Source of the DNA: Clostridia bacterium
GTDB taxonomy: Bacteria > Bacillota > Clostridia > Oscillospirales > CAG-272
NCBI GenBank assembly: GCA_017503105.1
Contig: JAFVTS010000014.1
Coordinates: 18,032 to 82,031, forward strand
Direction of reading: 5' to 3'
DNA: 64,000 bases
The position numbers and the translations under genes were made by a program. Numbering within the stretch: position 1 is the first letter of the stretch; every line of letters starts with the position of its first letter. Under the pieces are notes generated by a model. That model searched no databases, had not been told where the DNA came from, and saw nothing but the letters and a program-made list of their open reading frames with translations. Below, one piece after another: positions 29,955 to 48,518 of this stretch.

Positions 29955-30110
29955 TTAATATCTTTGTCAAGGGAAAGTTTTGGCACGGTTTCCGAAAAAA
30001 ATTACAGAAAATAACGACAGTAAAAGCCGAGCGGTGATATGCCGCTCGGCTTTCGTGTTTTTCATTTTTAACAAGTGCGAAGGTGACGTCAATGCAGAGA
30101 AAACCGATTT

Positions 30111-30980
30111 TCAAGGCTCCTTGCACTGACCTATTTCAAGGTCCTTGGCGTTTTTCATATACTGCGAGGGCGTCATTCCCGTGCGCTTTTTGAAGACCTT
30201 GGAGAAGTAGAGCGGACTTTCGAAGCCGCACATAGCACCGACCTCGGAGATCGAGCCAATGTGCAAGGGGAGCAGATCGCGCGCCTTTTGGATCCTCAGG
30301 TTGTTAAGATAAAGATTGAAGCCGATCGTCATATGCTTTTTGAAAAGAGAAGAAAGGTATTTTTCTGTATACGAAAAGGCGTCGCTCACCTTGCCGAGGG
30401 TCAAGGACGGGTCTGTGTAATTTGCGTCTACGTAATCGACGACGGCGGAAAAGAGAGATTCGGGCTCTCTTGCGCCTATCGTGTCGGGGGGCGCTATTTT
30501 TGCGGCGGCGTAATAGACGAGAGCCTTTGAAAGCAGAGCGCAGTTGTGCTCACCCGATTCGCGGACGGAGGCTTCGAAGAGCTCTGTCAGCTCCCCGTGT
30601 CCGTCAAAGGCAAGTGCGTCACGGCAAACTCCCACGCTCTCAAGCAAGGGTGCGGCACCCGAGCCGAGAAAGGCGACGTAAACGTATCTGAAATCGGGCG
30701 AGCCGTCAAGATAGTACGGCACGGCAGGCAGAGCGAAGAAGAGCGAGCCGCGCGAGAGCTGCCATACCCTCTCGGAGGTCCTGAGCTCAGCCGAGCCCGA
30801 GGTGACGACCCCCACCTTAAAATAAGGCTCGATAAACGGCTGTGAGAATTTTCGGTATTCCGTTTCGTAGACGAACGTGACGGTGCGAATGCCGCCGAGA
30901 TCCTGCTCGGAGGACATAAATTTGCATATACTCTCGGACACTTCTCTTCCCCTTTTCTCGGAAATTTTCTTCTGCTTCAT
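30111..30980 (-). CDS. AraC family transcriptional regulator
   Basis: N-terminal cupin-like sensor and C-terminal double HTH (ISEVGAMCGFESPLYFSKVFKKRTGMTPSQY). A terminator hairpin lies at 30024-30053. Confidence 0.85.
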   Translation of the reverse strand: MKQKKISEKRGREVSESICKFMSSEQDLGGIRTVTFVYETEYRKFSQPFIEPYFKVGVVTSGSAELRTSERVWQLSRGSLFFALPAVPYYLDGSPDFRYVYVAFLGSGAAPLLESVGVCRDALAFDGHGELTELFEASVRESGEHNCALLSKALVYYAAAKIAPPDTIGAREPESLFSAVVDYVDANYTDPSLTLGKVSDAFSYTEKYLSSLFKKHMTIGFNLYLNNLRIQKARDLLPLHIGSISEVGAMCGFESPLYFSKVFKKRTGMTPSQYMKNAKDLEIGQCKEP

Positions 30981-31109
30981 TATATATTATTTTTTGGAAA
31001 AAATCAAGCGTATGCGTATTTTTTTCATATTCTTCGCGAAAAATTGCATTTACTTCAAAAATGTGCTATGATAGAATAAAAGAAAAAAACAGCTAAGCGA
31101 GGATAGAAA

Positions 31110-32189
31110 ATGGACGGAAAAACCGTAAAGCTCGGTATACTCGGCTCAGGGCGCGGAGGCGAGCTCGGATGCGCCGTGATAGGAGAAAAAAACGTAAAGA
31201 TCACGGCTGTATGCGATCTTCACAAGGAGAGGATAGAAAAGCTTCGCGAGGTCTTTGCCAAAAGGGGCTGCACGGATTTTGAGTGCTATTCCGATTACGA
31301 AGCTATGCTAAGGGAGGCGGACGTTGACGCCGTGGTGGTCGCAAGCGCGAAGCCCGATCACGTCAAGCACTGTATTATGGCGCTCAGGGCGGGCAAGCAC
31401 GTTTTGTCCGAGATACCGACGGTCTGCTCGGTCGGGGAGGCAAGGCTCCTCAAAGCAGAGGTCCTGGCGCATCCCGAGCTCGTTTATATGGCTGGCGAGA
31501 ACTGCTGCTATTGGGCTTTCGTGGAAATGTGGAAAAAAATGCGCGAGGACGGAAAGTTCGGTGACGTCGTTTACGCCGAGGGTGAGTATCTTCACGCAGC
31601 CCACCCCGACGAGCTTCCCGACTATAAATACGACTCTTGGCGCGCGGAGAGTCCCGCTATAACCTACTTAACGCACGAGCTCGGTCCCCTGCTCGACATT
31701 ATGGACGACAGGTGCGTGAGCGTCAGCTGTATGGCACCGGACGCGAGCTACAACCCGAAGAGGACGAGGCGCGAAAACGGCGTTGCCATCTTCAAGACCG
31801 CAAAGGGCGCTGTAATAAGAATATTCATCGGCTTCGGCGCCTTCGTCGGATTTGATCACAACTTCGCGCTTTACGGAACGCGCGGAAGCATTACGACCGA
31901 CAGGCGCACGCCGCTTGAAAACGCTCACTCCTTCGCAAAGCTCTACGAGATCCCGGGGTCGATGGAGGGCGCCGTGGAGATCCCCGTCGCCTTGGCTTAC
32001 CCCGGTGAGAGCACCGAGGGGCACGGGGGTGCCGAGCCAAAGATGATGCGCGATTTTATATCCTGCATTCTTGAGGGCAAAAAGCCGAGGCTCGACGTCA
32101 AAGCGGGGATAAGAATGTCCCTGCCCGGCGTTATCGCCGACAGCTCGTCAAAATTGGGCGGCGCACTGCTTGAGATACCCGAAATTTAA
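31110..32189 (+). CDS. Gfo/Idh/MocA family oxidoreductase
   Basis: VKLGILGSGRGG Rossmann N-terminus and the EIP/EKP-type motif (HVLSEIP). It is divergent from the AraC gene. A TTGCAT-17-TGcTATGAT promoter lies upstream. Confidence 0.85.
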   Translation: MDGKTVKLGILGSGRGGELGCAVIGEKNVKITAVCDLHKERIEKLREVFAKRGCTDFECYSDYEAMLREADVDAVVVASAKPDHVKHCIMALRAGKHVLSEIPTVCSVGEARLLKAEVLAHPELVYMAGENCCYWAFVEMWKKMREDGKFGDVVYAEGEYLHAAHPDELPDYKYDSWRAESPAITYLTHELGPLLDIMDDRCVSVSCMAPDASYNPKRTRRENGVAIFKTAKGAVIRIFIGFGAFVGFDHNFALYGTRGSITTDRRTPLENAHSFAKLYEIPGSMEGAVEIPVALAYPGESTEGHGGAEPKMMRDFISCILEGKKPRLDVKAGIRMSLPGVIADSSSKLGGALLEIPEI

Positions 32190-32246
32190 CGAAATACGCA
32201 CCCCGAGCGCCAAGAGTGCCTTCGGAGTGCGTATTTTTATAAAAGA

Positions 32247-34556
32247 TCATAAGCCAAGTGCCGTGCCCACGCCCGACATAACGTCGTTTCCCGCGCCGAG
32301 CATTGCCTCGAACATTATCGGAAGGATAGCGGCGCACAAAGCCACGGCTATAACCGTGCCCGTCAGAAGAGAAAAGAAGACCTCGAAGCGCTTCATCGCC
32401 GATATTTCGCTTTTGCTCATTCCCGAAAGCGCGAAGAGCTCCATCTCGCTTTTTCTTCTTTTATAGCTGTTATAGAGGCTGTCGGCAAGACCTATAACCG
32501 AAAACGTCACGATTATAAACAGAAGCGCGTATCCGCAAGCACCGTAAACCTTTGCGGTGCTTACTTTTTCTCCGAGAAGCTCACTCGTGGGAAGGACCGT
32601 TGCAACGTCCTCCGCTATCGCCGTGCTGACCGCTCGCATAGCCTCGTCGTCCGTGACGCCTTCCGCGCTTATCGGGATAAGCAAATTCGGAGCGATATTT
32701 ACGGCGTCGCAGTCGAACAGAACGAAGGACATAGGTGACGGGACGATATCGCTTATTCTGAGCTTCAAGGGCTTATTATCGCATACGAGCCCTATCTCAT
32801 CGCCCTCCTTCAGCAAAAGCCGCTTCGCTATGCTCCTCGAGATCACGGCGCCGCTTCCTTTCGGAAGCTCGCTTATGCCGAACTCGTCCGACACGACGTC
32901 CTTATTTTTGACTGACATTGCGGCAACCACCGCGCCCTCTTCAAGCTGTGCCGAGGAAAAATATACGTTCTCCACGCTTTTTATCTCTTCACACGAGCTT
33001 ATCTTCTCTTTGCATTTTTGCGTGGCTCCGACGATAACGTGCCCGTTTCTGAAGACGTTCTCGGCGGCTATTATGTTTCCGCCCGAGCCGACGATGACGG
33101 TGGTCGCTATAATTACGACCGCAACGAGCGTTGCCGAAAGCCTTGCCGCGTTATGAAGAATACTGACGGAAATGATATTTTTGACAGCGTAGGTTCGCGC
33201 GGCGCTTTTTCGCGAAGAACGCTCCGCCCTCTCCGAGATAAAGCGCATCACGGAGCAAAGGATCTTCCCGACCGTAACGAAAGTACAAACGAGGGTGAGC
33301 GCCAGTCCCGGGACGGACAGCTTTATCTTCATCGCGGGCGGCACGAACAAGACCGAGAGATCCAGAACGACAGTCAGCGATACGAGGGCGGGCAGAAGGA
33401 GCTTGCTTTTCCTCTTCTTCGCCGCTTTTTTCTTAGAGAGTATGAAGATACCGACGGTCAGAAGCGATACCGCAAGCATTATAGCGGACGCGAACGCCGC
33501 CGTGCCCGCACCGACGCCGAGGACCGAATACCTGAGTCCTACGGCATTGCCCGTCGCACGGGCGAGCGGCACGGAAAGACCGACACCTATCAAGGTGCCG
33601 AATATCCAATAAATAACTACCTCGGCAAGCTGCATAATATTCAAATACGAAGGAGTCGCGCCCGCGTAGGCAAAGCTCTGATTTTCCTCGCGCCTCTCAT
33701 CGCCTAAGATATAAAAGCAACAAAACGTCACGGCAAGGGCGAGCAAGGCAACGAGCACTATCGACATATCGATAGCGATATTCATAGCGTCCACGTTCGC
33801 TTGCCCCTTCGTTACGGACGCCGTATCCGTATACGTCTTTTCCGCGAATGCGGGGTCGGCTTTCAGCCGTTCTATGCATTCTGCCACGGTATATCCCTCA
33901 TTTACGTCGATATACAGCGTGCTCGACGGCATAAAATCCGAACCGAGCGCTGACGCGATAACAGAGCTTTCACTAAGAGCTCTCACCGCGGCGCGTATAT
34001 CCGTAAGGATATTGTATTTTCCAAAGAAGGCGGTTTTGCTTATTCCCCCGACCCGATAAACGAGCTCGTCCGAAAAGAGCCTTGCCGTGAAGCTATCCCC
34101 GACGGAAAGCCCGTGCTCGTCGGCGAAGCTCTCCGTGACGAAGGCGGTCGACGCAAGGTCGCTGTCAGTTACCTCACCGTACGAGGTGAAGGACAGGTCG
34201 AACATTTTATTTATCTCGTAAAGATCAGCAGCCGAGCAGACGTAAGCCTCGTCCCCCTCTCCGAGCGACAGGATCATTTCGTAAGCTCCGAACGCGTATC
34301 CGCTATCTCCAAGGAGGCGGTTTGCGTCACGCGCGAACATAAATCTGTACCTTGACTCACCGTTCAGCGTCACCGTCATTTCCGCCCTGCCGTACTGTGA
34401 CGTCTGCGATACCCGTGCTTCTTCCAAAAGAGCGTCTTTTATCGACAGCGCAAGAGTACACGCGGTTATTGCGATAGAAAGCGTAAGAACCAATATCAGC
34501 GGCTGAAGCGGCTTTTTCCCGACGCTGCGGAAAAGATGCTTAAAAAACAGTTTCAT
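32247..34556 (-). CDS. FtsX/MacB-type ABC transporter permease (769 aa, duplicated FtsX module)
   Basis: N-terminal TM, a large extracytoplasmic domain, a 3-TM bundle, and then a second copy of the same arrangement. It overlaps the ATPase gene stop by 4 nt. Confidence 0.8.
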   Translation of the reverse strand: MKLFFKHLFRSVGKKPLQPLILVLTLSIAITACTLALSIKDALLEEARVSQTSQYGRAEMTVTLNGESRYRFMFARDANRLLGDSGYAFGAYEMILSLGEGDEAYVCSAADLYEINKMFDLSFTSYGEVTDSDLASTAFVTESFADEHGLSVGDSFTARLFSDELVYRVGGISKTAFFGKYNILTDIRAAVRALSESSVIASALGSDFMPSSTLYIDVNEGYTVAECIERLKADPAFAEKTYTDTASVTKGQANVDAMNIAIDMSIVLVALLALAVTFCCFYILGDERREENQSFAYAGATPSYLNIMQLAEVVIYWIFGTLIGVGLSVPLARATGNAVGLRYSVLGVGAGTAAFASAIMLAVSLLTVGIFILSKKKAAKKRKSKLLLPALVSLTVVLDLSVLFVPPAMKIKLSVPGLALTLVCTFVTVGKILCSVMRFISERAERSSRKSAARTYAVKNIISVSILHNAARLSATLVAVVIIATTVIVGSGGNIIAAENVFRNGHVIVGATQKCKEKISSCEEIKSVENVYFSSAQLEEGAVVAAMSVKNKDVVSDEFGISELPKGSGAVISRSIAKRLLLKEGDEIGLVCDNKPLKLRISDIVPSPMSFVLFDCDAVNIAPNLLIPISAEGVTDDEAMRAVSTAIAEDVATVLPTSELLGEKVSTAKVYGACGYALLFIIVTFSVIGLADSLYNSYKRRKSEMELFALSGMSKSEISAMKRFEVFFSLLTGTVIAVALCAAILPIMFEAMLGAGNDVMSGVGTALGL

Positions 34557-35206
34557 AAGACTATCTCTCCGTCGACGAGCCTTATTATCTTTTTGGCGTA
34601 AGCCGCGACCTTTTCACTGTGCGTGACCTGTATCACCGTCGTGCCGAGATCTCGGTTGATCTCGGTCAGGACCCGCATTACCGCCGCCTCGGATTTAGAG
34701 TCGAGCGCGCCCGTCGGCTCGTCAAGAATGACTATCGAGGGCTTATAGACGAGGGCTCTTATAATAGCGGCCCTCTGGCACTGACCGCCCGAGAGTTCTG
34801 TCGGATATTTATCGAGCATTTCCGAAAGACCGAGTCTTTTTATAAGCCCCTCTGCGTACTCCTTCGTTTCGGGGTCCGTCTTTTTGCCGAGCGTTGCCGT
34901 CAGGAATATATTATCTCTTACGTTCAGCGTGGGGATAAGGGCGTAGGATTGGAAAACGAAGCCCAAAACGCTCGAGCGCATTTTTGCCATTTCCCTCTCG
35001 CTGAGTGCCGATACGTCCTTGCCGTCGATAAAGACCGTTCCCGCGTCTGCCTGAATAAATCCTCCGATAATGCCGAGCAGAGTGCTTTTTCCGCTTCCGC
35101 TCTCACCCATTATGGAGACGAAATCGCCCTTTCCGAACTCAAGAGAAACGCCTCTTAACACCTTCTCGGAATTATAGCTTTTTTCAACACCTTTAACCTT
35201 GATCAT
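34553..35206 (-). CDS. ABC transporter ATP-binding protein (MacB/LolD-like)
   Basis: GESGSGKST (Walker A), LSGGQCQRAAIIRAL (signature), IVILDEPTGALD (Walker B). Confidence 0.92.
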   Translation of the reverse strand: MIKVKGVEKSYNSEKVLRGVSLEFGKGDFVSIMGESGSGKSTLLGIIGGFIQADAGTVFIDGKDVSALSEREMAKMRSSVLGFVFQSYALIPTLNVRDNIFLTATLGKKTDPETKEYAEGLIKRLGLSEMLDKYPTELSGGQCQRAAIIRALVYKPSIVILDEPTGALDSKSEAAVMRVLTEINRDLGTTVIQVTHSEKVAAYAKKIIRLVDGEIVL

Positions 35207-36407
35207 TTAACAAATACGATAAAGCAGGAGAAATACCTGCAATATACCCCTCCAAAGTTTTTAAGAAGCCGTCCGTTCCCAAGGATCCGCGCAGCTCTGC
35301 CGCGGTCTTTACGTCGAGCGTTTCAAGATATCTATCAAAATCCTCGCCGAAATATTCCTTGGCTGAATTCGTGTAATCCCCGTCCCTAAGCTCGATGGAC
35401 GAGAGCTCTTCAAGCCACTCCCACCCCTCGTCGTCAAGGGATAAAAGAAGCGCCTCAAGAAGCTTTGCCCCGTCCCTATCTCTTACGAGCTTCATATCGT
35501 CGACACCGAGTGAAGCCTTGAAATCGGAGATGAGCGTTACCGCCGCGTTCATATTCTCCGCGATGGCTGAAACGTCACCGTTTTTCTTTGCCGCCGCGAA
35601 GAGCCTTGAAATATACGAGCCCGTTTCATTCGCGGGAGCATACGACAAGAGCAGCCCCCAGCCGTCGGAGCTTATGCCGTCAATGGCAAAGCTTGCGTTT
35701 TGAATAAGTATTAAAAGCTCTTCGTCCGAAAAGCCGTCAAGCCCGTTTTCTTCGTGCGCGCCCTCAAAGAAGAGCGCCGAGGCGAAATTAAGCGCCTTTA
35801 CCGCATCGGAAAAGCGCTCAGCTCCGATTCCGACGAGCGCTTCCCTCTCCGAATAAAGCACGTCTGCTTCTTCTTTAAGAAATCCGAAGCCGCTCTCTTC
35901 GTAGTCACGCATCTTTTCTTCATATCTGAAATCATAGCTGTAAACGAGGACGTGATACGCCGTGACTCCCGCGTAATCCGCGGTGGCAATATCGGAAATA
36001 TCGGCGTAAAGCTTCAGCGCGGGGTCGTAGTTCTTTTCTTCCGAAAGAATGCCGTCTATCGCCCCCGAGGCGTTTTCTTCAATTATTTCCAATATCCGAA
36101 CGTACTCCACCTCGGATATTGGCGAAAGCCTCGTTACGCCGTATATCTTCTCTGCGTGGGTGCTCAGCGTTTTTTCAAGCTTCGGCGGCACCGCTTCTAC
36201 GCCCGAGGTCTTTTTCGTGTAATATTCAAGCAAGGAATAAATAGCGTCCTTTGCCCGTTTTTCCGTATTTTCGGAGTAGGTCGGCGCCTTGTCCGTTATT
36301 TCTATTCCGTTTTTTATTTCACCGTCTTCCCCGCCGCAGGACGAAAGCGCAAGCAAAAAGCAAGCGGCAAGGACGAGGGGCAAAAACGGTTTTATATATT
36401 TTTTCAA
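35193..36407 (-). CDS. Predicted all-helical lipoprotein of unknown function
   Basis: A TTG at 36407 is preceded by GGAGGAGG and gives M/LKKYIKPFLPLVLAACFLLALSSCGG (lipobox LSSC). The rest is Leu/Glu/Ala-rich. The track ORF starts 12 codons earlier, at 36443. Confidence 0.65.
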   Translation of the reverse strand: MKKYIKPFLPLVLAACFLLALSSCGGEDGEIKNGIEITDKAPTYSENTEKRAKDAIYSLLEYYTKKTSGVEAVPPKLEKTLSTHAEKIYGVTRLSPISEVEYVRILEIIEENASGAIDGILSEEKNYDPALKLYADISDIATADYAGVTAYHVLVYSYDFRYEEKMRDYEESGFGFLKEEADVLYSEREALVGIGAERFSDAVKALNFASALFFEGAHEENGLDGFSDEELLILIQNASFAIDGISSDGWGLLLSYAPANETGSYISRLFAAAKKNGDVSAIAENMNAAVTLISDFKASLGVDDMKLVRDRDGAKLLEALLLSLDDEGWEWLEELSSIELRDGDYTNSAKEYFGEDFDRYLETLDVKTAAELRGSLGTDGFLKTLEGYIAGISPALSYLLNDQG

Positions 36408-36480
36408 GCTTCCTCCTCCGATTTCAGAAAAGCCGAATGGCAAATTGCCAATCGGCTTTTCGTTAAGATTTTTTATAAGA

Positions 36481-39400
36481 TCACGCGATCTTCTCCGCGC
36501 TGAAGGTGATGCCGAAGTCGATTATCGCGTATTTGTCAGACCTTACGGTGACGTCGTTCCATTCGGTTTTTTCATCCGAAGGATACTTACCGTTCGGCGT
36601 CTGGCTTGCGTATTCATCCCCCTCGTCAAAGAGGAACTTGTCAAAATCAACGTCAAGTCTTACCGACGTCTTGTTATCCGCAGCGCTCACCGTTACGAAC
36701 ACGGCTCCGTCCACGTATACCTTGCTCTCATCAGCAAAGAGAATGTCAACTCCCACCTTTTCGCCCTTAACGATAAAGGCGATCTTGCCGAACTCTTCAC
36801 CGTTAGCATCGGTCAGCGTTATAAGAGCGCCGTCTGCGGTCGTTTCGTAGCTTGCGGTGAACATATTCACGAAGATGCTCTTGTCCTCTTCGGTCTCATC
36901 AAGAACGTATCCGTTGACCGTAAGAGTCGCATTCTTTACAGCACCCGCCTCGGTGTTTATCACAAGCTCAGCCAAGGTATCACCCTTATCATAATTGTTA
37001 AGCTGAAGCTTTACGGTATTTTCCGCAGCTTCGATAACTATTTCGGCTTTGTTCGGAAGCTTTACCTTAAAGCTGCCTGCCTCAAAGTTTACGGAAAAGA
37101 CGTTCTGTATGCTGTATTCTACACCCTCACCCGGAGCGCCCTTCTCAGCGACGAGAGCGTTTACTTCAAATCTGAATATTTCGGGCAAGCCGAGCTCGTT
37201 AAGCTTCATTTCAAGGTCGAAGAATTTCACACCGCCAATCTCGTAGTAAATAGTGAGCTCATTCTCGGAAGCAAAAGCGTAGAATTCTGCGGTAGCGGTA
37301 TTGCCCTTTTCATCGGTCACGCTTACGTTTTCGACAAACGTAACGGACTTAACTACGCCGTTTTCCTCTTCTATCTCACATTTGAACGTGCCTTCGCCCA
37401 AAAGCTTACCCGTATTTCCGTCACAAATAACAAGGCTTCCGACGATGCCGTTTTCCGTCACGGTCTCTTCGACTGTTATAGTATACTTTTCCGTTACGGC
37501 ATAAAACTCGCATTTGCCGTTCTCCGAGCCCGTCGCGATGATCGAAATTACGTTAACGATTTCTTCGCCGATGACCGCGTCCGTTTCGGGATCGTATTCC
37601 CTTTTTATGCTCCAGATATCGAAGTCGAACGACTTGAGCATTCCGTTTCCGTGCGTTTCCAAGGAAGCCTGGAACAGAATTACGCCGTTTACTGTAATAC
37701 ACGATGAAATCATATTCGGAGAAATGCTGAAGTTGAACTGCGTCGAATTAGTGACTTCGTTTTGGTCGAGGTCGAAAGCGCGAACGTCGAAGTTGAAATA
37801 AAGCGACTTCAAGACCTCGCCCTCACGCTCGGCGGTAACGATGAGGTCGAGGAAGTAGTGCAAACGCTTACGGGGTATCTCCATATTGACGTCAATTCCG
37901 TTGTCCAAAAGCGTTACGTGTCCGTTAACGAAAATTTTGTCTGTAATTCCGTCAATCATTAAATGGTACCAATACGACGTATCGCTTCCGCGTCCAATAG
38001 AGAGCATAAATAATGTCTCGTATTCTTCCGAGATCTGACCCGTAACGGGGTCGGAGGAGCTTGTAAATCCGCAAACAACTACGGTAAATTTCGAAAGACC
38101 TTTTTCGTCCGTCAAAGCTTCAAATATGAACATATCATATCCGTTATAGCTTACGGTCGCGCTTGTTTCCGTTTCCGTGAGCTTTGCCTCAAGGGAGTAC
38201 GTGTCGTCAAGATCAAGAGTTCCCGAAAGCTCGTATCCCAATACGTTTGCGGTGAGCATTCCCGTGAAGATATCAACGCCGCGTACGTTCACGGTTATCA
38301 GATGTACGCCTTCATCGTTTTTGGTATACTTAACGGAGGCTACGGAAACGTCCGCGTTAAGAGCGACGAGCTCACCATCACCGTTTACGGTAACGGAGAG
38401 ATCCGCAAGGCCCTTAAGTTTAGAGAGCTGATCGAAGATGCTGTAAGGCGCATCCGCACCCTCGGGGGTGAAGTAAGGATTGCCGAATGCGGCGAAATTG
38501 TAGAGCTGCTCAAGTGAAAGGTCGATCACCTGAGGAATGATGGCGTTCATACGCTCCTTTATAGCGCCTATGAACTCGTCGGCCGATACGCCCGGTGCAG
38601 CGAGTTCGCAAACGACCTCACCGAGAGTCTTTTCGTAACGGTTCTCTATCTCGTCACTTACGTCAATCTTAACGTCGGAGGCGAGATAAACGACGTAATT
38701 TATAAGCTCAAATACCGTTTCAAGCTCTACGCCGTAAGCCTTGGAGAACGCGATAGCCTTTACGGCTACGTCCTTAAGCTTCATATCAAAGATTCCGTTT
38801 GCAAAGGCTATAACGGCGTCGGTCGTTCCCTTGCCGTACTGAGCGTCAATGAAGCCCTTGACGGTCACGTTTTTATAGTTAGCGGCAAACTCCGTAACAG
38901 CCTCGATGTCTACGAAATAAACGGTATTGCCGTTCTCGTCAGCCGTCGTGCCGACAAGTGCATCGCCGAACAAAGCGGCAAGAGTCTGAATATTGCCGAC
39001 GAAGTTATCGGGCGTGAGAAGAGCTGCTACGTTTGTCAAAGCTCCTCCGACGAGGGGCATATAGTGAATAAGCTCCTTACCGATATTTACAGCCGCAAGT
39101 ACGAGCTCGGAGTCGATACCTACGACACCCGCGATAGCTTCCGCTATAAGCTCCTTTGCGTTTGCGTTGTATTTCTGCTGAAGTTTTTCGCCGCTTACGC
39201 CGAGAGAGTCAAGCTCCAAAGCGAAGTCGTCGCCGTTTACGTATATGTAAAGCGCGCCGAGATCATCGCTCTTTGCGGGCTCTGCCACGTCAGCGGGAGC
39301 CTTCGTTCCGTCAAGATATTCCGACGCTACGCGGAAGGAGAACTTGACGTGTCCGAGAAGAGCGTCATCCTGCTCTTTTACCATAACTTCCGCAAGCTCT

Positions 39401-39813
39401 ACGGTAACGAAGGTCTTCTTTCCCTTCTCTTCCGTACTGTAATTGTCAAGTTCTTTGACGAGTATTATCTTGGAATCGTCGTCTATCTTTGCCGAAAGCG
39501 CCGTATTCTCAAAGATGGGGGCAATGAGCTTAGTAACGTCGGGCAAGGAAACGGCAAGTGACTCTATCTCCTTGACCTCCTTATAATCACAGCCCGCCAC
39601 AGCGCAGGTGACGGTCTTTGAGCCCTTTTCATTCACGCTCGGATACTTGGTGACCGCGATCCTGAAATCGTGCTCGTGTGTCTCGACTTTGCCCGGTTCA
39701 TTTGCCTGAGGCACATCCGTTTCGTCCTCACCGCCGCAAGAATACAAGCAGAAGCTTACGGCAAGCATAAACACGCACATAAGTACGAGAAACAAACGTT
39801 TCGTGTTTTTCAT
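36481..39813 (-). CDS. Very large (1110 aa) predicted surface lipoprotein of unknown function
   Basis: MKNTKRLFLVLMCVFMLAVSFCLYSCGG is a signal peptide with a lipobox. It has an AGGAGG RBS and its own consensus promoter. The body is beta-rich (V/T/E/G/N) and I recognise no domain in it. Confidence 0.75.
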   Translation of the reverse strand: MKNTKRLFLVLMCVFMLAVSFCLYSCGGEDETDVPQANEPGKVETHEHDFRIAVTKYPSVNEKGSKTVTCAVAGCDYKEVKEIESLAVSLPDVTKLIAPIFENTALSAKIDDDSKIILVKELDNYSTEEKGKKTFVTVELAEVMVKEQDDALLGHVKFSFRVASEYLDGTKAPADVAEPAKSDDLGALYIYVNGDDFALELDSLGVSGEKLQQKYNANAKELIAEAIAGVVGIDSELVLAAVNIGKELIHYMPLVGGALTNVAALLTPDNFVGNIQTLAALFGDALVGTTADENGNTVYFVDIEAVTEFAANYKNVTVKGFIDAQYGKGTTDAVIAFANGIFDMKLKDVAVKAIAFSKAYGVELETVFELINYVVYLASDVKIDVSDEIENRYEKTLGEVVCELAAPGVSADEFIGAIKERMNAIIPQVIDLSLEQLYNFAAFGNPYFTPEGADAPYSIFDQLSKLKGLADLSVTVNGDGELVALNADVSVASVKYTKNDEGVHLITVNVRGVDIFTGMLTANVLGYELSGTLDLDDTYSLEAKLTETETSATVSYNGYDMFIFEALTDEKGLSKFTVVVCGFTSSSDPVTGQISEEYETLFMLSIGRGSDTSYWYHLMIDGITDKIFVNGHVTLLDNGIDVNMEIPRKRLHYFLDLIVTAEREGEVLKSLYFNFDVRAFDLDQNEVTNSTQFNFSISPNMISSCITVNGVILFQASLETHGNGMLKSFDFDIWSIKREYDPETDAVIGEEIVNVISIIATGSENGKCEFYAVTEKYTITVEETVTENGIVGSLVICDGNTGKLLGEGTFKCEIEEENGVVKSVTFVENVSVTDEKGNTATAEFYAFASENELTIYYEIGGVKFFDLEMKLNELGLPEIFRFEVNALVAEKGAPGEGVEYSIQNVFSVNFEAGSFKVKLPNKAEIVIEAAENTVKLQLNNYDKGDTLAELVINTEAGAVKNATLTVNGYVLDETEEDKSIFVNMFTASYETTADGALITLTDANGEEFGKIAFIVKGEKVGVDILFADESKVYVDGAVFVTVSAADNKTSVRLDVDFDKFLFDEGDEYASQTPNGKYPSDEKTEWNDVTVRSDKYAIIDFGITFSAEKIA

Positions 39814-39847
39814 TGTGTTTTCCTCCTAAAAAATTATTTGTACTGTT

Positions 39848-39876
39848 ATTATATCACTTGGCTGAATTGTTGTCAA
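39848..39876 (-). promoter_or_regulatory. Consensus sigma-A promoter of the lipoprotein/ABC operon
   Basis: On the minus strand: TTGACA (39876-39871), a 17-nt spacer, then TATAAT (39853-39848), about 35 nt upstream of the start at 39813. Confidence 0.6.
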
Positions 39877-40005
39877 CATTAAAATGCAAAAATATTTTAA
39901 CATTATTTTTAATTATGTAAAATTTATAGCTATAAAAAGGTGTTTTTACAGCACGGCCCGACGGCGGGATAGCCCCTGTCCGAACGTTTTTTGCTTACAA
40001 TAGTC

Positions 40006-40848
40006 TTAATTTGAGAGTCCGCCCTTTTTATCTTCTGTCGGCGTTTTTCCGAATTTCTTTTTATACGCCTTACAAAAATAGACGATGTCTGAAAATCCGC
40101 ACATCAAAGCCGCATCTTTGACCATTATATTGTTAGAAGTTATAAAAAGATTGCGCGCATACCTAAGCCTTATCTCAAGTATGTATTTGAATATCGGTAC
40201 ACCGTATCTGCTTTTAAAGCTATGACACAGAGTTGACGCCGAAACGCAAAAGTGTTGTGAAAGAGCTGCAAGCGTTATTTTTTTGGAGAAATTTTTATTT
40301 ATGTATTTCGCGATCTCATCAAGCCAATCATCCTCTTCGTTTTTAGCGGATTCAAAAAAATCAACGTAAAACGAATATGCAAGCGAGGAGAGTTTTCCCT
40401 GATCCGCGCCTTTTTGATATTCATATATTATCTGCTTGATCGCAGACAGATATTTTGCAGTATTTGTGTTTTTGTAAAACAGAAATCCGTTATCGGCAAA
40501 ATTATCGTTTAATTCATCCGCAGCACTCCCCGTCACCGTAAGAAAAGCGCTTACGAGCCCGCCCTCGTTTATATACTCCACAGGAGTATGCACTGATGTG
40601 AAAAAAGAGCACCCTTTTTTCAAAGCATACGATTCGCCGTTACAGCGAAGAGTTCCTCTTCCTTCGAGTATAAAAAGTATTTGATGAAACCCGCTCGTTC
40701 CGTCGGGACGTATTACAGTCTCCTGGTTATGCTCTTCTCCCGCACTGAGAAATACTATCGGATATTTGTTTGCGCTGTTGCAAAAAGCATTTATTATCAT
40801 ATTTCCTCCGTTTGCAAGATATTCCAACAAATATGCAATATAATCCAT
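40006..40848 (-). CDS. AraC family transcriptional regulator
   Basis: 280 aa with a cupin-like N-terminal domain and a C-terminal HTH (VKDAALMCGFSDIVYFCKAYKKKFGKTPTE). It is divergent from the GH2 gene and visibly more AT-rich than its neighbours. Confidence 0.85.
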   Translation of the reverse strand: MDYIAYLLEYLANGGNMIINAFCNSANKYPIVFLSAGEEHNQETVIRPDGTSGFHQILFILEGRGTLRCNGESYALKKGCSFFTSVHTPVEYINEGGLVSAFLTVTGSAADELNDNFADNGFLFYKNTNTAKYLSAIKQIIYEYQKGADQGKLSSLAYSFYVDFFESAKNEEDDWLDEIAKYINKNFSKKITLAALSQHFCVSASTLCHSFKSRYGVPIFKYILEIRLRYARNLFITSNNIMVKDAALMCGFSDIVYFCKAYKKKFGKTPTEDKKGGLSN

Positions 40849-40929
40849 TTACTCGCCCGTTTGTTTGCAATATAATCATTATAGCACACAAAAATTAAAA
40901 AATCAACGGCAGAAACGAGAGGTGTATTT

Positions 40930-43332
40930 ATGAAAAAAAGATGTATATCAAAGGATTGGAAATTTAAAAACGTCACTCTTGGCAGCAATTACACGGATAT
41001 AGACCTTCCGCACGATTACCAGATAAAGCAAAAAAGAGATCCGTCGGAATCTGCGGGAATCGGTTTTTATCCCGACACCGAGGGGCGATACGTGAAATAC
41101 ATTTATTTCGACAAAGATCATAAGAACAAGCATTACATACTTGATATAGACGGGGCTTATATGTGCACACACATTGAGTTCAACGAGCATTTTGTCGCTA
41201 TGCATCCTTACGGTTATACCCCGTTTTTAGCCGATATTACCGACCTTATTATAACGAACGTGACGAACAAGCTCGTCATCACAACCTCACCTCTTCCGCG
41301 CTCGTGCAGATGGTATTCGGGTAACGGTATATACAGAGACGTTTTTCTCTGGGAAGGCGGAAGTATTCGTATTGAACCGCGAGATATGTTCATATCGACG
41401 CTGAGTGCCTCTGAAGAAGAGGCGTCGTTAAGTCTTCGCTATACCGTAAGCGCTGACGAAGACGCAGACGCAGACGTTATATTTACCGTTTTCGACCCGG
41501 AAAACAACGCCGTAAAAACCGAAAATGTTTCTACCCGGCTAAAAAAAGGAAAAAACGAATATGAGCACACATTGAATATTCCCCACCCCAAGCTTTGGAA
41601 TATAGACACGCCGAACCTTTGCACGCTCAAAACGGAGATCGTGAAGGACGGAGAAATAACGGATATATCGGAAAACACGTTCGGAATCAGAACCGTTACC
41701 GCCGACTCAGAAAACGGCTTGCTTATCAACGGCAGGTTTGTAAAGCTTCGCGGCGGCTGTATCCACCACGATCACGGAGAATTGGGTGCTGCCGCCTTTC
41801 CCGCTGCCGAGGAACGAAAGGTACGCCTGCTTCAGGAAGCGGGGTTCAACGCTCTCCGTTGCGCTCACAATCCTCCGTCACTTGCGTTCCTCGAATGCTG
41901 CGACCGACTCGGAATGATCGTAATGGACGAGGCGTTCGATGCGTGGAACAAAAGGAAAACGCCATCGGATTATCACCTTTTCTTTAGTGATTGGTGGGCT
42001 CGCGATATATCGTATATGGTAAAGAGGGACCGTAACCATCCTTGCGTACTCAGCTATTCAATAGGTAACGAGATACTTGAGATAGACGGTACCTCGGACA
42101 GCGCCGAGTGGTCAAGAAGGCTGAGCGATGAGATACGCAAATACGATGACACGAGGCTCGTTACGTCGGGAATACAGAAGATCTTTGTAAAAAAGAAGTC
42201 CTTAGAAAGTACGGATCCCGACGACTATAAGGAATACATCGAAAACACCTTTAAAAAGCTTGACCGAACGCAAATCAACAGCGTCACCCTTCCATACGAG
42301 AAAAATCTTGATATAGTTGGCGTGAACTATTATTTTGAAAATTATTCGTTTGAGTGTGAACAGTACCCGGATCGCGTTCTTTGGGGCAGTGAAACTCAGG
42401 CTATACACTTTTACCGCTCGTGGTCGTTGGCGGAAAAAAACAACTGTATTCTCGGTGATTTCACCTGGACCGCCTACGACAATATGGGCGAGGTAGGTGC
42501 AGGAAGAGGCGTTTGGGAGCGCGACGGCGGATACAAGGGTGGGCTTACGCTCGGCAAGTATCCTTGGAGAAATTGTTACCAGGGAGACCTTGATCTTTGC
42601 GGTTACCGACGCCCTCAATCTTATTACCGCGAGGCATTATGGATAGGAAACAAAGAGCCTCGCATCTTTACCACACATCCCGAGCACTTCGGAGAGAATT
42701 ACAGCGGTACTAACTGGCATTGGTATGACGTTCACGAAAGCTGGACTTATGATGACAAATACATCGGCAGACCGATAAAAGCCGAAACGTATACCGACGC
42801 CGATAAAATCGTATGGTTCGTAAACGGGAAAATCGTGGGTGAAAGCGTCCCCGTCGACGGCATAGCGACCGTCAGCACGATATATGAAAAAGGATACATC
42901 CGCGCAGTATCTTATAAGAACGGAAAAGAACACTCCGAATACACGCTTGAAACGACGGGGAGCGCGTGCGCCATCTCTCTCTCTCCCGAAAAAGAGGAGC
43001 TTTGCGCCGACGGAAGAGACCTGTGCTACGTTCGGATAAGTCTTCGTGATAAGAACGGACGCCCCGTCGTGGGTGATGACAAAGAGATAGAATGTTATGT
43101 AAATAACGGAGAATTGCTTGCTTTCTTCAGCGGCGATCCAAAAACCGAGGACGATGCCTCCTCAAACCGTTGCCACACGTTTAACGGATGCGCTTTGGCT
43201 ATAATAAGAACAAAAAGCGCAGGTAATATCTCCGTAACCGTGTGCGGAAAAGAGCTTGCGGGAGAAACAAAAACAGTCGTAGCTAAAGATCTTAATATTT
43301 CATTTATATACGACTGTCGGTGCGACGGGTAA
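40930..43332 (+). CDS. Glycoside hydrolase family 2 protein (beta-galactosidase/beta-glucuronidase-like)
   Basis: 800 aa with NALRCAHNPPS, MDEAFD and RDRNHPCVLSYSIGNE (acid/base NE), plus C-terminal Ig-like/DUF4982-like domains. The last 6 codons and the stop lie inside the repeat described below. Confidence 0.85.
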   Translation: MKKRCISKDWKFKNVTLGSNYTDIDLPHDYQIKQKRDPSESAGIGFYPDTEGRYVKYIYFDKDHKNKHYILDIDGAYMCTHIEFNEHFVAMHPYGYTPFLADITDLIITNVTNKLVITTSPLPRSCRWYSGNGIYRDVFLWEGGSIRIEPRDMFISTLSASEEEASLSLRYTVSADEDADADVIFTVFDPENNAVKTENVSTRLKKGKNEYEHTLNIPHPKLWNIDTPNLCTLKTEIVKDGEITDISENTFGIRTVTADSENGLLINGRFVKLRGGCIHHDHGELGAAAFPAAEERKVRLLQEAGFNALRCAHNPPSLAFLECCDRLGMIVMDEAFDAWNKRKTPSDYHLFFSDWWARDISYMVKRDRNHPCVLSYSIGNEILEIDGTSDSAEWSRRLSDEIRKYDDTRLVTSGIQKIFVKKKSLESTDPDDYKEYIENTFKKLDRTQINSVTLPYEKNLDIVGVNYYFENYSFECEQYPDRVLWGSETQAIHFYRSWSLAEKNNCILGDFTWTAYDNMGEVGAGRGVWERDGGYKGGLTLGKYPWRNCYQGDLDLCGYRRPQSYYREALWIGNKEPRIFTTHPEHFGENYSGTNWHWYDVHESWTYDDKYIGRPIKAETYTDADKIVWFVNGKIVGESVPVDGIATVSTIYEKGYIRAVSYKNGKEHSEYTLETTGSACAISLSPEKEELCADGRDLCYVRISLRDKNGRPVVGDDKEIECYVNNGELLAFFSGDPKTEDDASSNRCHTFNGCALAIIRTKSAGNISVTVCGKELAGETKTVVAKDLNISFIYDCRCDG

Positions 43333-43705
43333 CAAAAAGCACCCGCGAGGGGTGCTTGAAATACAACAAAATCAAACTATTTCGACGGGAAGTCGAACTA
43401 TGCAAATCGCTTTGCGCTTTGCATACGCAGTTTCCCTCGCCGAAAGCGAGGCAAACGTGCGCCGTGTGGGCTGAAGCCCCACGCGCTCTCGCACCTGTCG
43501 GTGCCGCGGGTAACAAAAAGCACCCGCGAGGGGTAAGGTTTTTCTTCGACGGGAAGTCGAACTATGCAAATCGCTTTGCGCTTTGCATACGCAGTTTCCC
43601 TCGCCGAAAGCGAGGTAAACGTGCGCCGTGTGGGCTGAAGCCCCACGCGCTCTCGCACCTGTCGGTGCCGCGAATAACAAAAAGCACCCGCGAGGGGTGC
43701 TTTTT
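43314..43705. repeat. Tandem direct repeat of a hairpin-saturated 154-nt unit (2 full copies plus 1 partial), each ending in a terminator-like hairpin
   Basis: Copies at 43381-43534 and 43545-43698 have a 164-nt period and 3 mismatches by eye. A partial copy lies at 43314-43355. Six helices can be drawn per unit (see finding). Confidence 0.9.
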
Positions 43706-43710
43706 GTTAT

Positions 43711-44077
43711 TGGTGGAGCCGACGGGAATCGAACCCGTGTCCAAAAACCTCTTGATACAACTTTCTTCGCGGACAGTTTGTCTTTTATCCTTCCCCATCG
43801 GGAGCGCCGACAAACAAGCTCGCCTTCAGAGTAGCCCTTTTTTGCTTGATCGGTTCAAGGGCGAAACGCCGATGCAAGTTCACTACTGATTTGACGCACG
43901 GCAGGGGCCGTAGTCCTCCCCTGCGGTACGGGCGGCATTATAGCCGCGACACAGCCTTAGGCTGCAAGAGCAACTCTATTGTTGTCGTTTATTTTTAAGT
44001 TTGGACAGTTTTACGGGATTATCCTGCCCGCCGCGCTTATCATACCTCGGGATCCCTGTCGAAACCATTGCGGCCCC
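43711..44077 (-). ncRNA. ssrA: tmRNA (SsrA)
   Basis: On the minus strand the 5' end reads GGGGCCGCAATGGTTTCGACAGGG and the 3' end reads GGACACGGGTTCGATTCCCGTCGGCTCCACCA (T-arm, acceptor, CCA). The inferred tag frame GAC AAC AAT AGA GTT GCT CTT GCA GCC TAA (43986-43957) gives (A)DNNRVALAA. Confidence 0.95.
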
Positions 44078-44098: not shown

Positions 44099-44127
44099 AT
44101 TATACACGCTTTTATTCGCTTTGTCAA
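44099..44127 (-). promoter_or_regulatory. Consensus sigma-A promoter for ssrA precursor
   Basis: On the minus strand: TTGACA (44127-44122), a 17-nt spacer, then TATAAT (44104-44099). The -10 box ends 21 nt before the mature 5' end, which implies a processed leader. Confidence 0.6.
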
Positions 44128-44218: not shown

Positions 44219-45217
44219 ATGGATTCTCTGATTTTTGCTTTTAACGCAGTTCTGCCCATCGTCCTCGTCGTGGCGCTTGGGTATTTTATTAAAAGGATAA
44301 AGCTCGTTACCGTGGGCACGGCAAAAGAGCTGAACAAGATAGTTTTCCGCGTTCTTCTGCCTGCCAACCTTTTTTTGAGCGTTTACAAGATCGATTCCCT
44401 TGCGAGCGTCAATCTCACTTTCGTGCTTTTTGCCGTTGTCGCGACCGTAGCTCTTTTCGCTCTCGGGCTTATTTACGTACGCTTTGCCACGAAGGAATAT
44501 TCAAGGCGCGGCGCGCTTTTGCAAGCCGTGTTCCGTTCAAACTACGCACTCATCGGCGTTTCCCTCGTCGTTGAGATATTCGGAGAATCGGGCTCGGGCT
44601 CGGCGGCGCTGCTTGCGGCGTTCATCGTTCCGCTCTTCAACATCCTCGCGGTAATAACTCTCACGGTCTTTGAGCCCGTAGCCGAGGGGGAGGAAAAGCA
44701 TAAGATAAGCGTCAAAAGGATAGTCATCGGAATTTTAAAGAATCCTCTCGCGCTCTCCGTTTTCACGGGTCTTGCGGTGCTCGGAATAAGAGCGTGCTTC
44801 GTCAGATTTGACCTGAGCTTCAGACTCAGCGATCTCTCCCCCGTCAGCTCGGTTCTTGAAATGCTCTCGCGCTCCGCGACGCCCCTCGCCCTCGTTGCCC
44901 TCGGCGCGCAGTTCGAATTTTCCGCTGTTAAGGAAATGAAGCGCGAGATAATCAGCGCGACGGTGGTAAGACTCATTTTCGTTCCTCTTCTCGCCCTCGG
45001 TTCAGCTGTGCTCTTCTTCCGCTTTACAGGACCCGAGTACGCGGCATTGATTGCGGCGTTTGCAAGCCCCGTTGCGGTGTCGAGCGTTCCTATGGCGCAG
45101 GAGATGCGCGGCGACGCGACTCTCGCAGGGCAGATAGTCGTCTGGACGACGCTCTTCTCGTCCGTGTCGCTCTTCCTCTTCATCTTTGCGCTGAGAGCTC
45201 TCGGCGTACTCGTCTGA
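44219..45217 (+). CDS. AEC (auxin efflux carrier) family transporter
   Basis: 332 aa with about 10 TM helices. The N-terminus, NAVLPIVLVVALGYFIKR, is typical of the AEC/malate-permease-like family. Confidence 0.7.
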   Translation: MDSLIFAFNAVLPIVLVVALGYFIKRIKLVTVGTAKELNKIVFRVLLPANLFLSVYKIDSLASVNLTFVLFAVVATVALFALGLIYVRFATKEYSRRGALLQAVFRSNYALIGVSLVVEIFGESGSGSAALLAAFIVPLFNILAVITLTVFEPVAEGEEKHKISVKRIVIGILKNPLALSVFTGLAVLGIRACFVRFDLSFRLSDLSPVSSVLEMLSRSATPLALVALGAQFEFSAVKEMKREIISATVVRLIFVPLLALGSAVLFFRFTGPEYAALIAAFASPVAVSSVPMAQEMRGDATLAGQIVVWTTLFSSVSLFLFIFALRALGVLV

Positions 45218-47001: not shown

Positions 47002-48369
47002 TCAGAAGTTGAAATACGTCTTTGCGTTTTCGTACGCAATGCCCTTTACTATTTTCTCAAGCATATCGTAATTTGCGGGGTACTCGCCCTCCTCTACCCA
47101 CTTGCCGATGAGATTACAGAGTATGCGTCTGAAATACTCGTGGCGAGTGTAGGAAACGAAGGAGCGGCTGTCGGTGAGCATTCCGACGAAGCGAGAGAGC
47201 ATTCCGAGATTGGCAAGCGCCTGCATCTGCGCCTCCATTCCGTCGCGCTGGTCGTTGAACCACCAACCGGAGCCGAATTGGATCTTGCCGGGGGTGGGCG
47301 CCTTCTGGAAGTTACCGAGCATCGTGCCGAGGGTATAGTTATCCTTCGGGTTGAGGGTATAAAGTATAGTCTTAGGAAGAATATCGGCATACTCAAGCTT
47401 GTTCATAAACGCAGAGAGCTTTTCGGCTATCTGAAGGTCGTTTATGGAGTCGAAGCCCGTGTCAGCACCAAGCTTTTCGTACATTCTTCTGTTATTATTA
47501 CGAAGAGCGCCGATATGGAGCTGCATTGCCCAGCCGCGCTTCGTGTATTCCTCCGCGCAAACGGCGAGCAACGCGGTCTTGAAGGAATCTATCTCGCACT
47601 CGGTGAGCTCACCGCCCGCCATACGCTTATTGAAAGCAGCCTCGGCGTCGCCCTCTGCAAACGGGACGTACTCAAGCGCGTGGTCGGAAAGACGGCAGCC
47701 GTAGGAATCGAAGAACGCGATACGGTCCTTTATCCAAGCGACAAGCTCGGAATAGGATTTAACACCGATCTGATTTATATAAGGAAGGAACGTTTCCTTG
47801 CCTATCTCAACCGCCTTATCGGGACGGAAGGTGGGAAGCACCTTGACCTCAAAATCACGAAGCGCCTTGTGATATTCAAGAGTGTCCGCGGGGTCGTCGG
47901 TCGTGCAGATGACCTCAACCCCCGAGCGCTTTATGAGATTTTTTGCGGAATACTCGGGCTTTTCAAGAAGCGCGTTTATCTTATTCCAGATCCTCTCACA
48001 GCTCTCTTCGTTAAGCTCCTCGTCGATACCGAAATATCTCTTCAGCTCAAGGTGGGTCCAATGATACATAGGATTTCCGATAAGAAGAGGCAGAGTCTTT
48101 GCAAACGCCAAGAACTTCTCGTAATCGGGGGCTGAGCCCGTGATATATTCCTCGTCAATTCCGTTTGAGCGCATCTGACGCCACTTATAGTGGTCGCCGC
48201 CGAGGAAGAGGTCGTAAGCGTTCTTGAAGGTGTGATCCTCCGCTATCATCTTCGGAACGAGATGGCAATGGTAGTCGATAATGGGCATATCCTTTATCAT
48301 CGCGTAGAGCTTTTTCGCGGTCTTGCTTTTAAGCATAAAGGATTCGTTTACGATGTTTGGTACTGACAT
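47002..48369 (-). CDS. uxaC: Glucuronate (uronate) isomerase
   Basis: PIIDYHCHL and the WWFND-type motif (GSGWWFNDQRDGM). A GAGGAG RBS precedes the ATG at 48369. The track ORF extends to 48426. Confidence 0.92.
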   Translation of the reverse strand: MSVPNIVNESFMLKSKTAKKLYAMIKDMPIIDYHCHLVPKMIAEDHTFKNAYDLFLGGDHYKWRQMRSNGIDEEYITGSAPDYEKFLAFAKTLPLLIGNPMYHWTHLELKRYFGIDEELNEESCERIWNKINALLEKPEYSAKNLIKRSGVEVICTTDDPADTLEYHKALRDFEVKVLPTFRPDKAVEIGKETFLPYINQIGVKSYSELVAWIKDRIAFFDSYGCRLSDHALEYVPFAEGDAEAAFNKRMAGGELTECEIDSFKTALLAVCAEEYTKRGWAMQLHIGALRNNNRRMYEKLGADTGFDSINDLQIAEKLSAFMNKLEYADILPKTILYTLNPKDNYTLGTMLGNFQKAPTPGKIQFGSGWWFNDQRDGMEAQMQALANLGMLSRFVGMLTDSRSFVSYTRHEYFRRILCNLIGKWVEEGEYPANYDMLEKIVKGIAYENAKTYFNF

Positions 48370-48518
48370 TTTAATTCTCCTCAATGTTTTTATTTTAATT
48401 ATAGCTTCTTTAAAATTAAAAGTCAAGTGAATTGCGGGGCTGTTTTGAAAAATGCGGACGATTTTATAAATTTCTGAAAAAATGTGTACGATTTCTTGAT
48501 TTTTTTAGAAAAAATATA

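Follow-up and report, generated by a model that had tools for sequence, protein, structure and literature searches.

Layout of the ssrA 3' flank

In the 64,000-nt stretch of Clostridia bacterium DNA analysed here (the window), a tandem repeat array separates two convergent genes, one encoding a GH2-family glycosidase and the other, ssrA, encoding transfer-messenger RNA (tmRNA). Tandem Repeats Finder reported a single array at 43381-43698 with a period of 164 nt, 1.9 copies, 98% matches and a score of 615. A pairwise comparison showed that its 154-nt copies (43381-43534 and 43545-43698) are identical at 151 of 154 positions and differ at 43452/43616 (C/T) and 43509-10/43673-4 (GG/AA). A first-pass annotation had described two such direct repeats with three differences, and both methods agreed with it. 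It had also noted a partial copy near 43314-43355, which was borne out by 28/28 identical positions at 43330-43357 and by a 40-nt terminator block that recurs in three direct copies (43314-43353, 43495-43534 and 43659-43698; consensus CTGTCGGTGCnRCGnnTAACAAAAAGCACCCGCGAGGGGT). The homology of the copy farthest from ssrA to the units stops at 43314. The GH2 reading frame reads its C-terminal DCRCDG, which is its last six codons, and its TAA (43330-43332) from the first of these blocks, as had already been pointed out from the same open reading frame (ORF).

Read on the minus strand, which is the sense of ssrA, the order of the parts is the ssrA 3' end, T, X, psi3', a 10-nt junction, T', X, psi3', a 27-nt spacer, T'', 16 nt of X, and the end of GH2 in antisense. 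Here T, T' and T'' are copies of the terminator, psi3' is a direct pseudo-copy of the ssrA T-loop and 3' end, and X is the trailer of about 115 nt between T and psi3'. Unit 2, the one next to ssrA, begins in this sense with the terminator block, the inverted pseudo-3' end (helix H5) and H4 with the conserved CCACACGGCGCA, and continues with H3, the palindrome H2 and the direct pseudo-3' end (H1). The coordinates are collected in Table 1.

Table 1. Features of the ssrA 3' flank in the window (strand: +, -, or. where none applies)
Feature	Position	Strand	Basis or remark
Lineage-specific cargo, ~13.3 kb, from T'' to the conserved YpsA-transketolase block	30010-43313	.	tblastn synteny with L008 and L012; Pfam
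GH2-family glycosidase, 800 aa	40930-43332	+	Pfam GH2 domains
T'', third terminator-block copy	43314-43357	-	overlaps the last 6 codons and TAA of GH2
Unit 1	43381-43534	-	151/154 identical to unit 2
Inter-unit junction, 10 nt, AAGGTTTTTC	43535-43544	.	makes T' together with 43515-43534
Unit 2 (ssrA-proximal)	43545-43698	-	repeat finding, copy comparison, folds, alignment
psi3', direct pseudo-copy of the ssrA T-loop/3' end, GTTCGAcTTCCCGTCG	43547-43562; 43383-43398	-	local alignment
H2 palindrome, TATGCAAA-N11-TTTGCATA	43563-43589 (copy 1: 43399-43425)	.	alignment, inverted-repeat search
H3 hairpin	43594-43620 (copy 1: 43430-43456)	.	folds; mismatch 43616 is the polymorphic site
H4 hairpin	43621-43658 (copy 1: 43457-43494)	.	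folds, alignment
Long imperfect palindrome centred on the T loop	43658-43726	.	inverted-repeat search
T, ssrA terminator hairpin, AAAAAGCACCC-GCGAG-GGGTGCTTTTT	43679-43705	.	folds; U-run on both strands
tmRNA gene ssrA, tag DNNRVALAA	43711-44077	-	ARAGORN; Rfam RF00023, 156.5 bits
ssrA promoter, TTGACA-17-TATAAT	44099-44127	-	promoter scan, 12/12 consensus positions

Relatives of the locus, designated here by L numbers, were obtained through exact-protein look-ups, and several of their contigs ended before ssrA or lacked linkage to it. These data bear on the concern, raised with the first description of the array, that the duplication is an artefact of assembly. Two Logan contigs terminate within the array, as unresolved repeats do, and all of the data are short-read, so that a copy number above two is possible. 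However, two ENA metagenome assemblies made independently from different samples with different assemblers (L001 and L002) carry the identical two-copy array with the same junctions as the window, and the left-hand context differs for each of the three terminator copies. Tandem repeats are usually collapsed rather than created by assemblers, and we regard an artefact as hardly credible. Strain L002 differs from the window at one base in 9.6 kb; this base is 43616, at which L002 equals copy 1.

The ssrA promoter was kept in the aligned relatives. At the other end of the gene, T forms a G+C-rich hairpin of 16-17 bp, with an A-run on one side and a T-run on the other; its helix extends to 43673-43711 and has one compensated change (G-C to A-T) in L012. 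By its G+C-rich hairpin and U-run it would qualify as an intrinsic terminator on both strands, in line with the earlier description of helix H6 as terminator-like, and T probably serves ssrA and GH2 alike as their terminator. T'' has a hairpin at 43337-43357 followed by a U-run; it is a good minus-strand terminator and is intact in the ssrA sense. T' (43515-43544) is a degenerate copy with a bulge in the 5' arm of its stem. The promoter and terminator scan flagged both T' and T'' as terminators on the minus strand. Scan and sequence together agreed with the previous observation that the minus strand has three terminator-like copies and that on the plus strand only the last one has a U-run.

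ssrA-derived sequence and relatives of the module

Sequence derived from ssrA is present in the unit as a direct and as an inverted copy, which the first-pass annotation had overlooked. The direct piece, psi3', matches all 15 bases of ssrA GTTCGATTCCCGTCG (the T-loop and the 3' half of the T-stem) with one inserted C. It lies inside H1 and is short, without the acceptor/CCA part. Its local alignment score is 25, a value that no shuffle out of 2000 attained when the comparison was made with the final 40 nt of ssrA. Over the complete tmRNA, the unit has no better local match than this one (p 0.002). The homology starts at the first base of the T-loop. Direct pseudo-3' ends downstream of ssrA were also present in L012 (p 0.003) and in L008 (a 17-mer, p 0.001).

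The inverted piece belongs to the long palindrome, whose arms (43658-43689 and 43695-43726) are 32 nt long and 84% complementary. The last 16 nt of ssrA (43711-43726) form one part of an arm, and the left arm, which is the start of X, is an inverted and decayed ssrA 3' end that includes H5. An opposite-strand self-match was found by nhmmer with an E-value of 1e-7. At the corresponding position in L031 the inverted ssrA 3' end is an exact 15-mer, CCGTCGGCTCCACCA (0/1000 shuffles), and an inverted copy exists also in L029. Because psi3', the inverted copy and the terminator coincide with them, three of the six helices (H1, H5 and H6) descend from ssrA or from the terminator. A reading of the plus strand as a degenerate inverted mini-tmRNA, with a 5' end resembling TTTCGACAGGGA, was rejected because this strand gave no significant match to the tmRNA (p 0.7).

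Four species carry the module: that of the window, L012, L029 and L031. L012 (GCA_045655765.1), whose Mem_trans protein is 71% identical, has the single-copy order ssrA-T-X-psi3'-spacer-T'', and its X is 77% identical to that of the window. In L029 and L031 (GCA_054289385.1) we found T, the inverted ssrA end, H4 and the start of H3; H2 and psi3' are not shared. The identity of the module is 80% between the window and L029 and 88% between L029 and L031. In L031 a 270-nt insert, which has a terminator of its own, has separated the trailer from ssrA.

This insert of about 270 nt, which follows the ssrA terminator, contains at 9530-9598 on the plus strand a sub-threshold match to the Gut-1 RNA motif (RF01706), with 36 bits against a gathering threshold of 50, an E-value of about 1e-5 and hairpins spaced by UGAAAU. 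The Gut-1 motif is not known to have a function, and a Gut-1-like match at an ssrA insertion site may hint at what carries it.

The whole module is absent from L008 and from L009, which have equal ssrA sequences. L008 has another trailer, and at about 5390-5470 on its minus strand a pseudo T-arm, CGGGTTCGA ... ATTCCCGTCGGTTCCA, is split in the T-loop by a perfect hairpin of 48 nt, with ATTCCCGTCGGTTCCA following the hairpin (p 0.001). Judged from its sequence, this split pseudo T-arm appears to be a second, independent miniature scar of the kind found in the window.

A profile search of the 64-kb window and about 330 kb of related loci revealed no further copy of the module and, within that range, no scattered copies of the kind that had been named earlier as a refutation. 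Exact-pattern scans of viral contigs and JGI metagenomes returned no copies of it either; one viral match to the ssrA 3' 19-mer was an unrelated tmRNA gene. Searches with blastn of the window array and the L031 flank against phage and plasmid collections gave no meaningful match. A protein search with a spurious ORF that spans the unit found the module only in the window species and in L012, and a scan of the genome collection with the Mem_trans protein gave only Planctomycete genes of 32% identity. On the 4.4-kb contig of another relative, L013 (1508-2671), a Mem_trans homologue is preceded by a gene for a Rep_trans protein, of rolling-circle replication, and ssrA was not found on that contig.

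On the far side of T'' lies the cargo, which in the window contains genes for an AraC protein, a GFO oxidoreductase, an ABC/FtsX transporter, two proteins without a Pfam family, a further AraC protein and the GH2 enzyme. It reaches the YpsA-transketolase block, located at 25109-29954. The gap between ssrA and YpsA spans about 330 nt in L008; that of L031, with the 270-nt insert counted, comes to about 500 nt. L012 has 2.2 kb there (TetR and a cation-efflux CDF transporter), and the window 13.3 kb. In L009 (1-5505), whose ssrA and Mem_trans are those of L008, a type I restriction-modification island begins 4 nt after the CCA and contains hsdR, two hsdS genes and one Phage_integrase-family gene; from its sequence, this island looks like a phase-variable type I restriction-modification locus. 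Synteny breaks between ssrA and YpsA, and the content there differs among the window, L008, L009, L012, L029 and L031. Since both the distance and the content up to YpsA differ in every genome, the ssrA 3' flank is an insertion hotspot.

Two further observations were made on the neighbouring genes. The two cargo proteins of 1110 aa (36481-39813, minus strand) and 416 aa (35193-36443, minus strand), which had no Pfam family at an E-value of 0.001, adjoin the ABC/FtsX transporter pair. The glucuronate isomerase gene uxaC is a single 474-aa ORF in the window (47002-48426) and is in two pieces of 366 and 106 aa in L001 (11073-12403), a difference due to a frameshift or to faulty assembly of that sample.

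Folding, transcription and coding capacity

The minimum free energy of folding was -84.6 kcal/mol (z -6.0) for the RNA of the plus strand, -85.3 kcal/mol (z -6.95) for that of the minus strand and -55.8 kcal/mol (z -7.5) as DNA, and in each case none of 200 dinucleotide shuffles was as stable. All of the helices proposed in the first-pass annotation, H1 to H6, formed in the folds. It had further claimed that the three inter-copy substitutions all fall at unpaired positions. This holds for 43616, which is an internal mismatch, and fails for the other two: a fold that takes in the ssrA 3' end has A43673 paired with T43711 and A43674 with T43710, which makes the terminator helix longer.

Some of these elements are strictly conserved. 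Both 8-nt arms of H2, which lies 1 nt from the psi3' core, and their flanks (AAACTGCG and GTT) are identical in L012. H4 holds the block TGCGCCGTGTGG (43622-43633), which in the ssrA sense is CCACACGGCGCA, and no change in it was observed in any of the four species. The six hairpins are unrelated to one another. The ssrA flanks of the clade are all unusually rich in hairpins (z -4 to -7.7), and those that are unrelated in sequence (L008 and the L031 insert) equally so; therefore, hairpin richness is a property of the locus and not of a sequence family. It is largely inherited from palindromic parents, namely the terminator, the pieces derived from the T-arm and the inverted ssrA end.

The proposal that the array represents a new structured non-coding RNA was not supported, although it keeps some probability, since only four species carry the module and its sequence changes less than neutral sites do. 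The absence of a known RNA family, already stated in the first pass, was confirmed with Rfam, in which nothing but tmRNA reached the gathering threshold; a permissive search gave the same outcome, and the best sub-threshold scores were those of tmRNA_permuted (24.4 bits against a threshold of 47) and GcvB (19.4 against 42). A promoter scan of 43300-43710 on both strands, which covers the sigma-70 type only, found no sigma-70-like promoter. When the fold of the window was placed on L012, 36 pairs were unchanged, 2 compensated, 8 changed on one side and 9 broken, and H1 and H5 are not hairpins in L012. Substitutions between the two affect 20% of the paired and 29% of the unpaired positions. RNAalifold, with four species only, recovered T, H5 and H4 and gave a covariation term of +2.6, which is penalising, with double changes in 3 of 21 pairs.

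In the ssrA sense the units lie behind the strong terminator T. On the plus strand they could be transcribed only by read-through from GH2, because T'' has no U-run there and T has one. The two expression contexts suggested earlier, serial trailers of ssrA or a structured 3' untranslated region of GH2, are both compatible with these results, as by-products.

Other known categories were considered for the array. A protein-coding reading was rejected: the 189-aa ORF that crosses it antisense to ssrA takes the two copies in different frames, and its sole homologue covering the units is an equally spurious ORF of L012. We judged this ORF spurious, in agreement with the previous statement that no credible ORF exists. 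A second, permuted tmRNA, which ARAGORN called as 'tmRNA*' in L012 (5277-5599) and L029 (1328-1716), was rejected as well, the tag ORF being unconserved. These calls and the 24-bit tmRNA_permuted score arise because an inverted copy of the acceptor strand follows the real T-arm and CCA. The calls overlap the 3' end of the real gene and appear to be a systematic false positive. Readings as a group II intron domain V, an omega-RNA or a retron-like element were set aside, as the motifs that define them and their partner genes (reverse transcriptase, TnpB) appear to be absent.

Origin of the array and comparison with known systems

Taken together, the data suggest, with a probability of roughly 0.55, that the array is non-coding recombination debris at the 3' flank of ssrA that has been amplified recently, and not an RNA gene. 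A recombination remnant at the ssrA integration hotspot was one of the possibilities named in the first-pass annotation, and it is now favoured by psi3', the palindrome, the three terminator blocks and the variable insertions. It is reported that a displaced gene fragment beside a regenerated target gene marks the end of an island (PMC4383910). Direct repeats of ssrA in tandem arrays are also known, and the T-loop is a reported crossover site of ssrA-specific islands (PMC3146451). The start of psi3' agrees with this loop, which counts among the canonical crossover sublocations together with the equivalent of the anticodon loop and the 3' end.

The following course of events would produce the present layout. 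In the ssrA sense, the basic module would consist of the ssrA T-loop/3' end, the terminator T and the trailer of about 115 nt. The ancestor shared with L012 would already have had a displaced second 3' end and a terminator behind the trailer (ssrA-T-X-psi3'-spacer-T''), a layout that DNA entering at the tmRNA T-loop would leave if the incoming DNA regenerated the end of the gene. In the window species, unequal recombination or slippage between the terminator repeats of 28-40 nt may then have generated the second T'-X-psi3' unit. Separately, various cargo would have been inserted or exchanged just past T'', and the GH2 ORF would have come to run into the repeat and to take its stop codon there. 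At present T would end the transcription of ssrA and, on the other strand, that of GH2; T' and T'' would act as back-up terminators in the ssrA sense; and the two units would be passive passengers of the GH2 3' untranslated region. Only T appears to have an evident function today. The anatomy of the array, its homology to ssrA, the single-copy and half-module homologues, the hypervariable cargo and the lack of Rfam hits and of a promoter are direct observations; we infer the integrase-mediated origin, the mechanism of duplication and the choice of the terminating hairpins.

Several findings weigh against the view of the array as a scar. Between T and each fragment there are only about 115 nt of non-coding DNA and no foreign genes, and the 13-kb cargo is located past T'' and is not enclosed by the pseudo-3' ends. 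No integrase, recombinase or other mobility gene was found by Pfam among the larger ORFs between YpsA and ssrA in the window, and no intact parent element was found in the phage, plasmid, viral, JGI metagenome or genome collections. The unit junctions fit neither a T-loop integrase crossover nor a simple unequal crossover between T and T'', and the 10-nt inter-unit junction is unlike the 27-nt spacer before T''. The degree of conservation points in the same direction. Identity at four-fold sites between the window and L012 is 43% for transketolase and 20% for Mem_trans, near saturation, and it is 45-52% between the window and L031/L029; L029 and L031 are 75% identical at these sites and 88% in the module. 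Because the four-fold sites are near saturation, a neutral scar that predates the split of the species should no longer align, and yet the H2 arms, their flanks and CCACACGGCGCA are without any change. T and T'' also share species-specific states in the window and in L012; therefore, gene conversion or independent acquisition is needed. This conservation implies one of three things: recent acquisition or homogenisation (by transfer, gene conversion or repeated visits), blocks that are bound by protein, or an RNA function.

As for Mem_trans itself (44219-45217 in the window, 6001-6999 in L012), the four-fold identity of 20% is below random expectation, which suggests that the base composition at third positions has diverged strongly between the lineages of the window and L012.

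The last two of these implications lead to the possibility that the module is a conserved functional cis element linked to ssrA, acting as a structured RNA or as a DNA site for a protein. It might be a stack of insulators or back-up terminators shielding ssrA from convergent transcription, its trailer might, in precursors made by read-through, base-pair with the 3' end of the tmRNA, or the H2 palindrome and the CCACACGGCGCAG block might be bound by proteins. Such an element would account for the identity of 77-88% between species whose four-fold sites are 43-52% identical, for the invariance of CCACACGGCGCA in the four species and of the H2 arms and flanks in L012, and for the retention of the inverted ssrA end in all four species, in perfect form in L031. 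The inner stem of H4 keeps its pairing across an A-T/C-G exchange and a paired indel, the window, L012 and L031 all have a hairpin where H3 lies, each with its own stem sequence, and the module stays with ssrA whatever gene neighbours it. However, the comparison has no statistical power because only four species carry the module, and broken pairs outnumber compensated ones between the window and L012 (9 against 2), with no hairpin at H1 and H5 in the latter. The module lies behind a strong terminator in the ssrA sense, no promoter was found on either strand and Rfam gave no match. In addition, L029 and L031 lack the half with H3, H2 and H1 or have other sequence in its place, and L008 and L009, whose ssrA genes are identical, are without the module altogether. 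We consider a functional cis element unlikely, though the most probable of the rival explanations. A bolder version, also improbable, is that this uncultured Clostridia lineage maintains by selection an ssrA-linked element made of the terminator, set in a palindrome of 32-nt arms with the tmRNA 3' end, and of the invariant CCACACGGCGCAG and AAACTGCGTATGCAAA...TTTGCATAGTT, so that the duplication would be a copy-number variant of a functional site. Bound by a protein, such an element might serve as a landing pad where cargo is captured although no integrase is resident; alternatively, it might act in tmRNA 3' processing or insulation.

Conservation and cargo turnover would also be explained, the former through arm-type binding sites, if the array were a still active miniature integrative module resembling a cis-mobilizable element (CIME), a unit with att-like ends which an integrase from another part of the genome would move, duplicate or use as a landing pad. 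The 40-nt direct repeats flank each unit, a pseudo T-loop/3' end is present at every unit boundary, the conserved palindrome H2 lies 1 nt from the psi3' core, and the cargo turns over at the same spot in relatives. Non-autonomous elements that keep attL and attR have been discussed for ssrA islands (PMC3146451). On the other hand, there is no integrase near the site in the 64-kb window, the junctions are not those predicted for a T-loop crossover, and no second genomic location was found in the window and the related loci. A circle of 164 bp would also be very small for site-specific recombination, and we hold an active module of this type to be quite unlikely. Membership in a dispersed family of repetitive extragenic palindromes (REP), bacterial interspersed mosaic elements (BIME) or miniature inverted-repeat transposable elements (MITE) is scarcely tenable. 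The array is hairpin-rich, intergenic and placed between convergent genes, as such repeats are; however, its six hairpins are mutually unrelated, no other copy exists in the 64-kb window or in the roughly 330 kb of related loci, the exact-pattern scans of viral and JGI metagenome collections had no matches, and the protein search with the spurious ORF met the module only in the window species and L012.

If the array is a recombination scar, as we favour, its meaning is mostly one of housekeeping: it should not be annotated as a new RNA, because it can be decomposed into terminator copies and gene-end fragments. The locus indicates that the ssrA 3' flank of an uncultured gut Clostridia lineage swaps cargo between close relatives (a glycosidase cluster, a restriction-modification island, a transporter), and that an ORF such as GH2 can gain its stop codon from recombination debris. 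The wider interest lies in a module that is far better conserved than synonymous sites, which would matter if it is a landing pad or a tmRNA-associated regulatory site.

The array shares features with several known systems. Like bidirectional intrinsic terminators between convergent genes, T is a hairpin with A- and T-runs between the convergent ssrA and GH2; unlike the usual ones, it occurs in three copies and is set in a far longer palindrome that enters the tmRNA gene. Clusters of REP/BIME elements likewise lie between convergent genes and stack stable hairpins in their 3' region, but the present array has no repeated hairpin family and no dispersed copies in the window and the related loci, and its parts are derived from ssrA. 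Permuted (two-piece) tmRNA genes have, as here, a real T-arm and CCA followed by the complement of the acceptor 3' strand, whereas the window contains a complete standard tmRNA, its tmRNA_permuted score falls well short of the 47 bits required, and the tag ORF is unconserved.

The closest resemblance is to displaced fragments of tmRNA genes (the Islander principle, PMC4383910) and to the tandem ssrA islands of Dehalococcoides (PMC3146451). In common with these are direct repeats of the ssrA 3' end that start at the T-loop and lie downstream of an intact ssrA, tandem repeats, a hypervariable region, and incoming DNA that brings a gene end and a terminator. The array differs from them in that only about 115 nt separate the gene end from the fragment, with no island and no integrase and with the cargo past the last fragment. 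Its best-conserved repeat is the terminator block and not the ssrA end, and an extra inverted ssrA end makes a palindrome of 69 bp. The near-identical duplicate 'mini-islands' of the window are not seen in Dehalococcoides. Integration scars at tmRNA genes are known, and the array, if it is such a scar, would be new in its miniature, terminator-centred, partly inverted and tandemly duplicated form.

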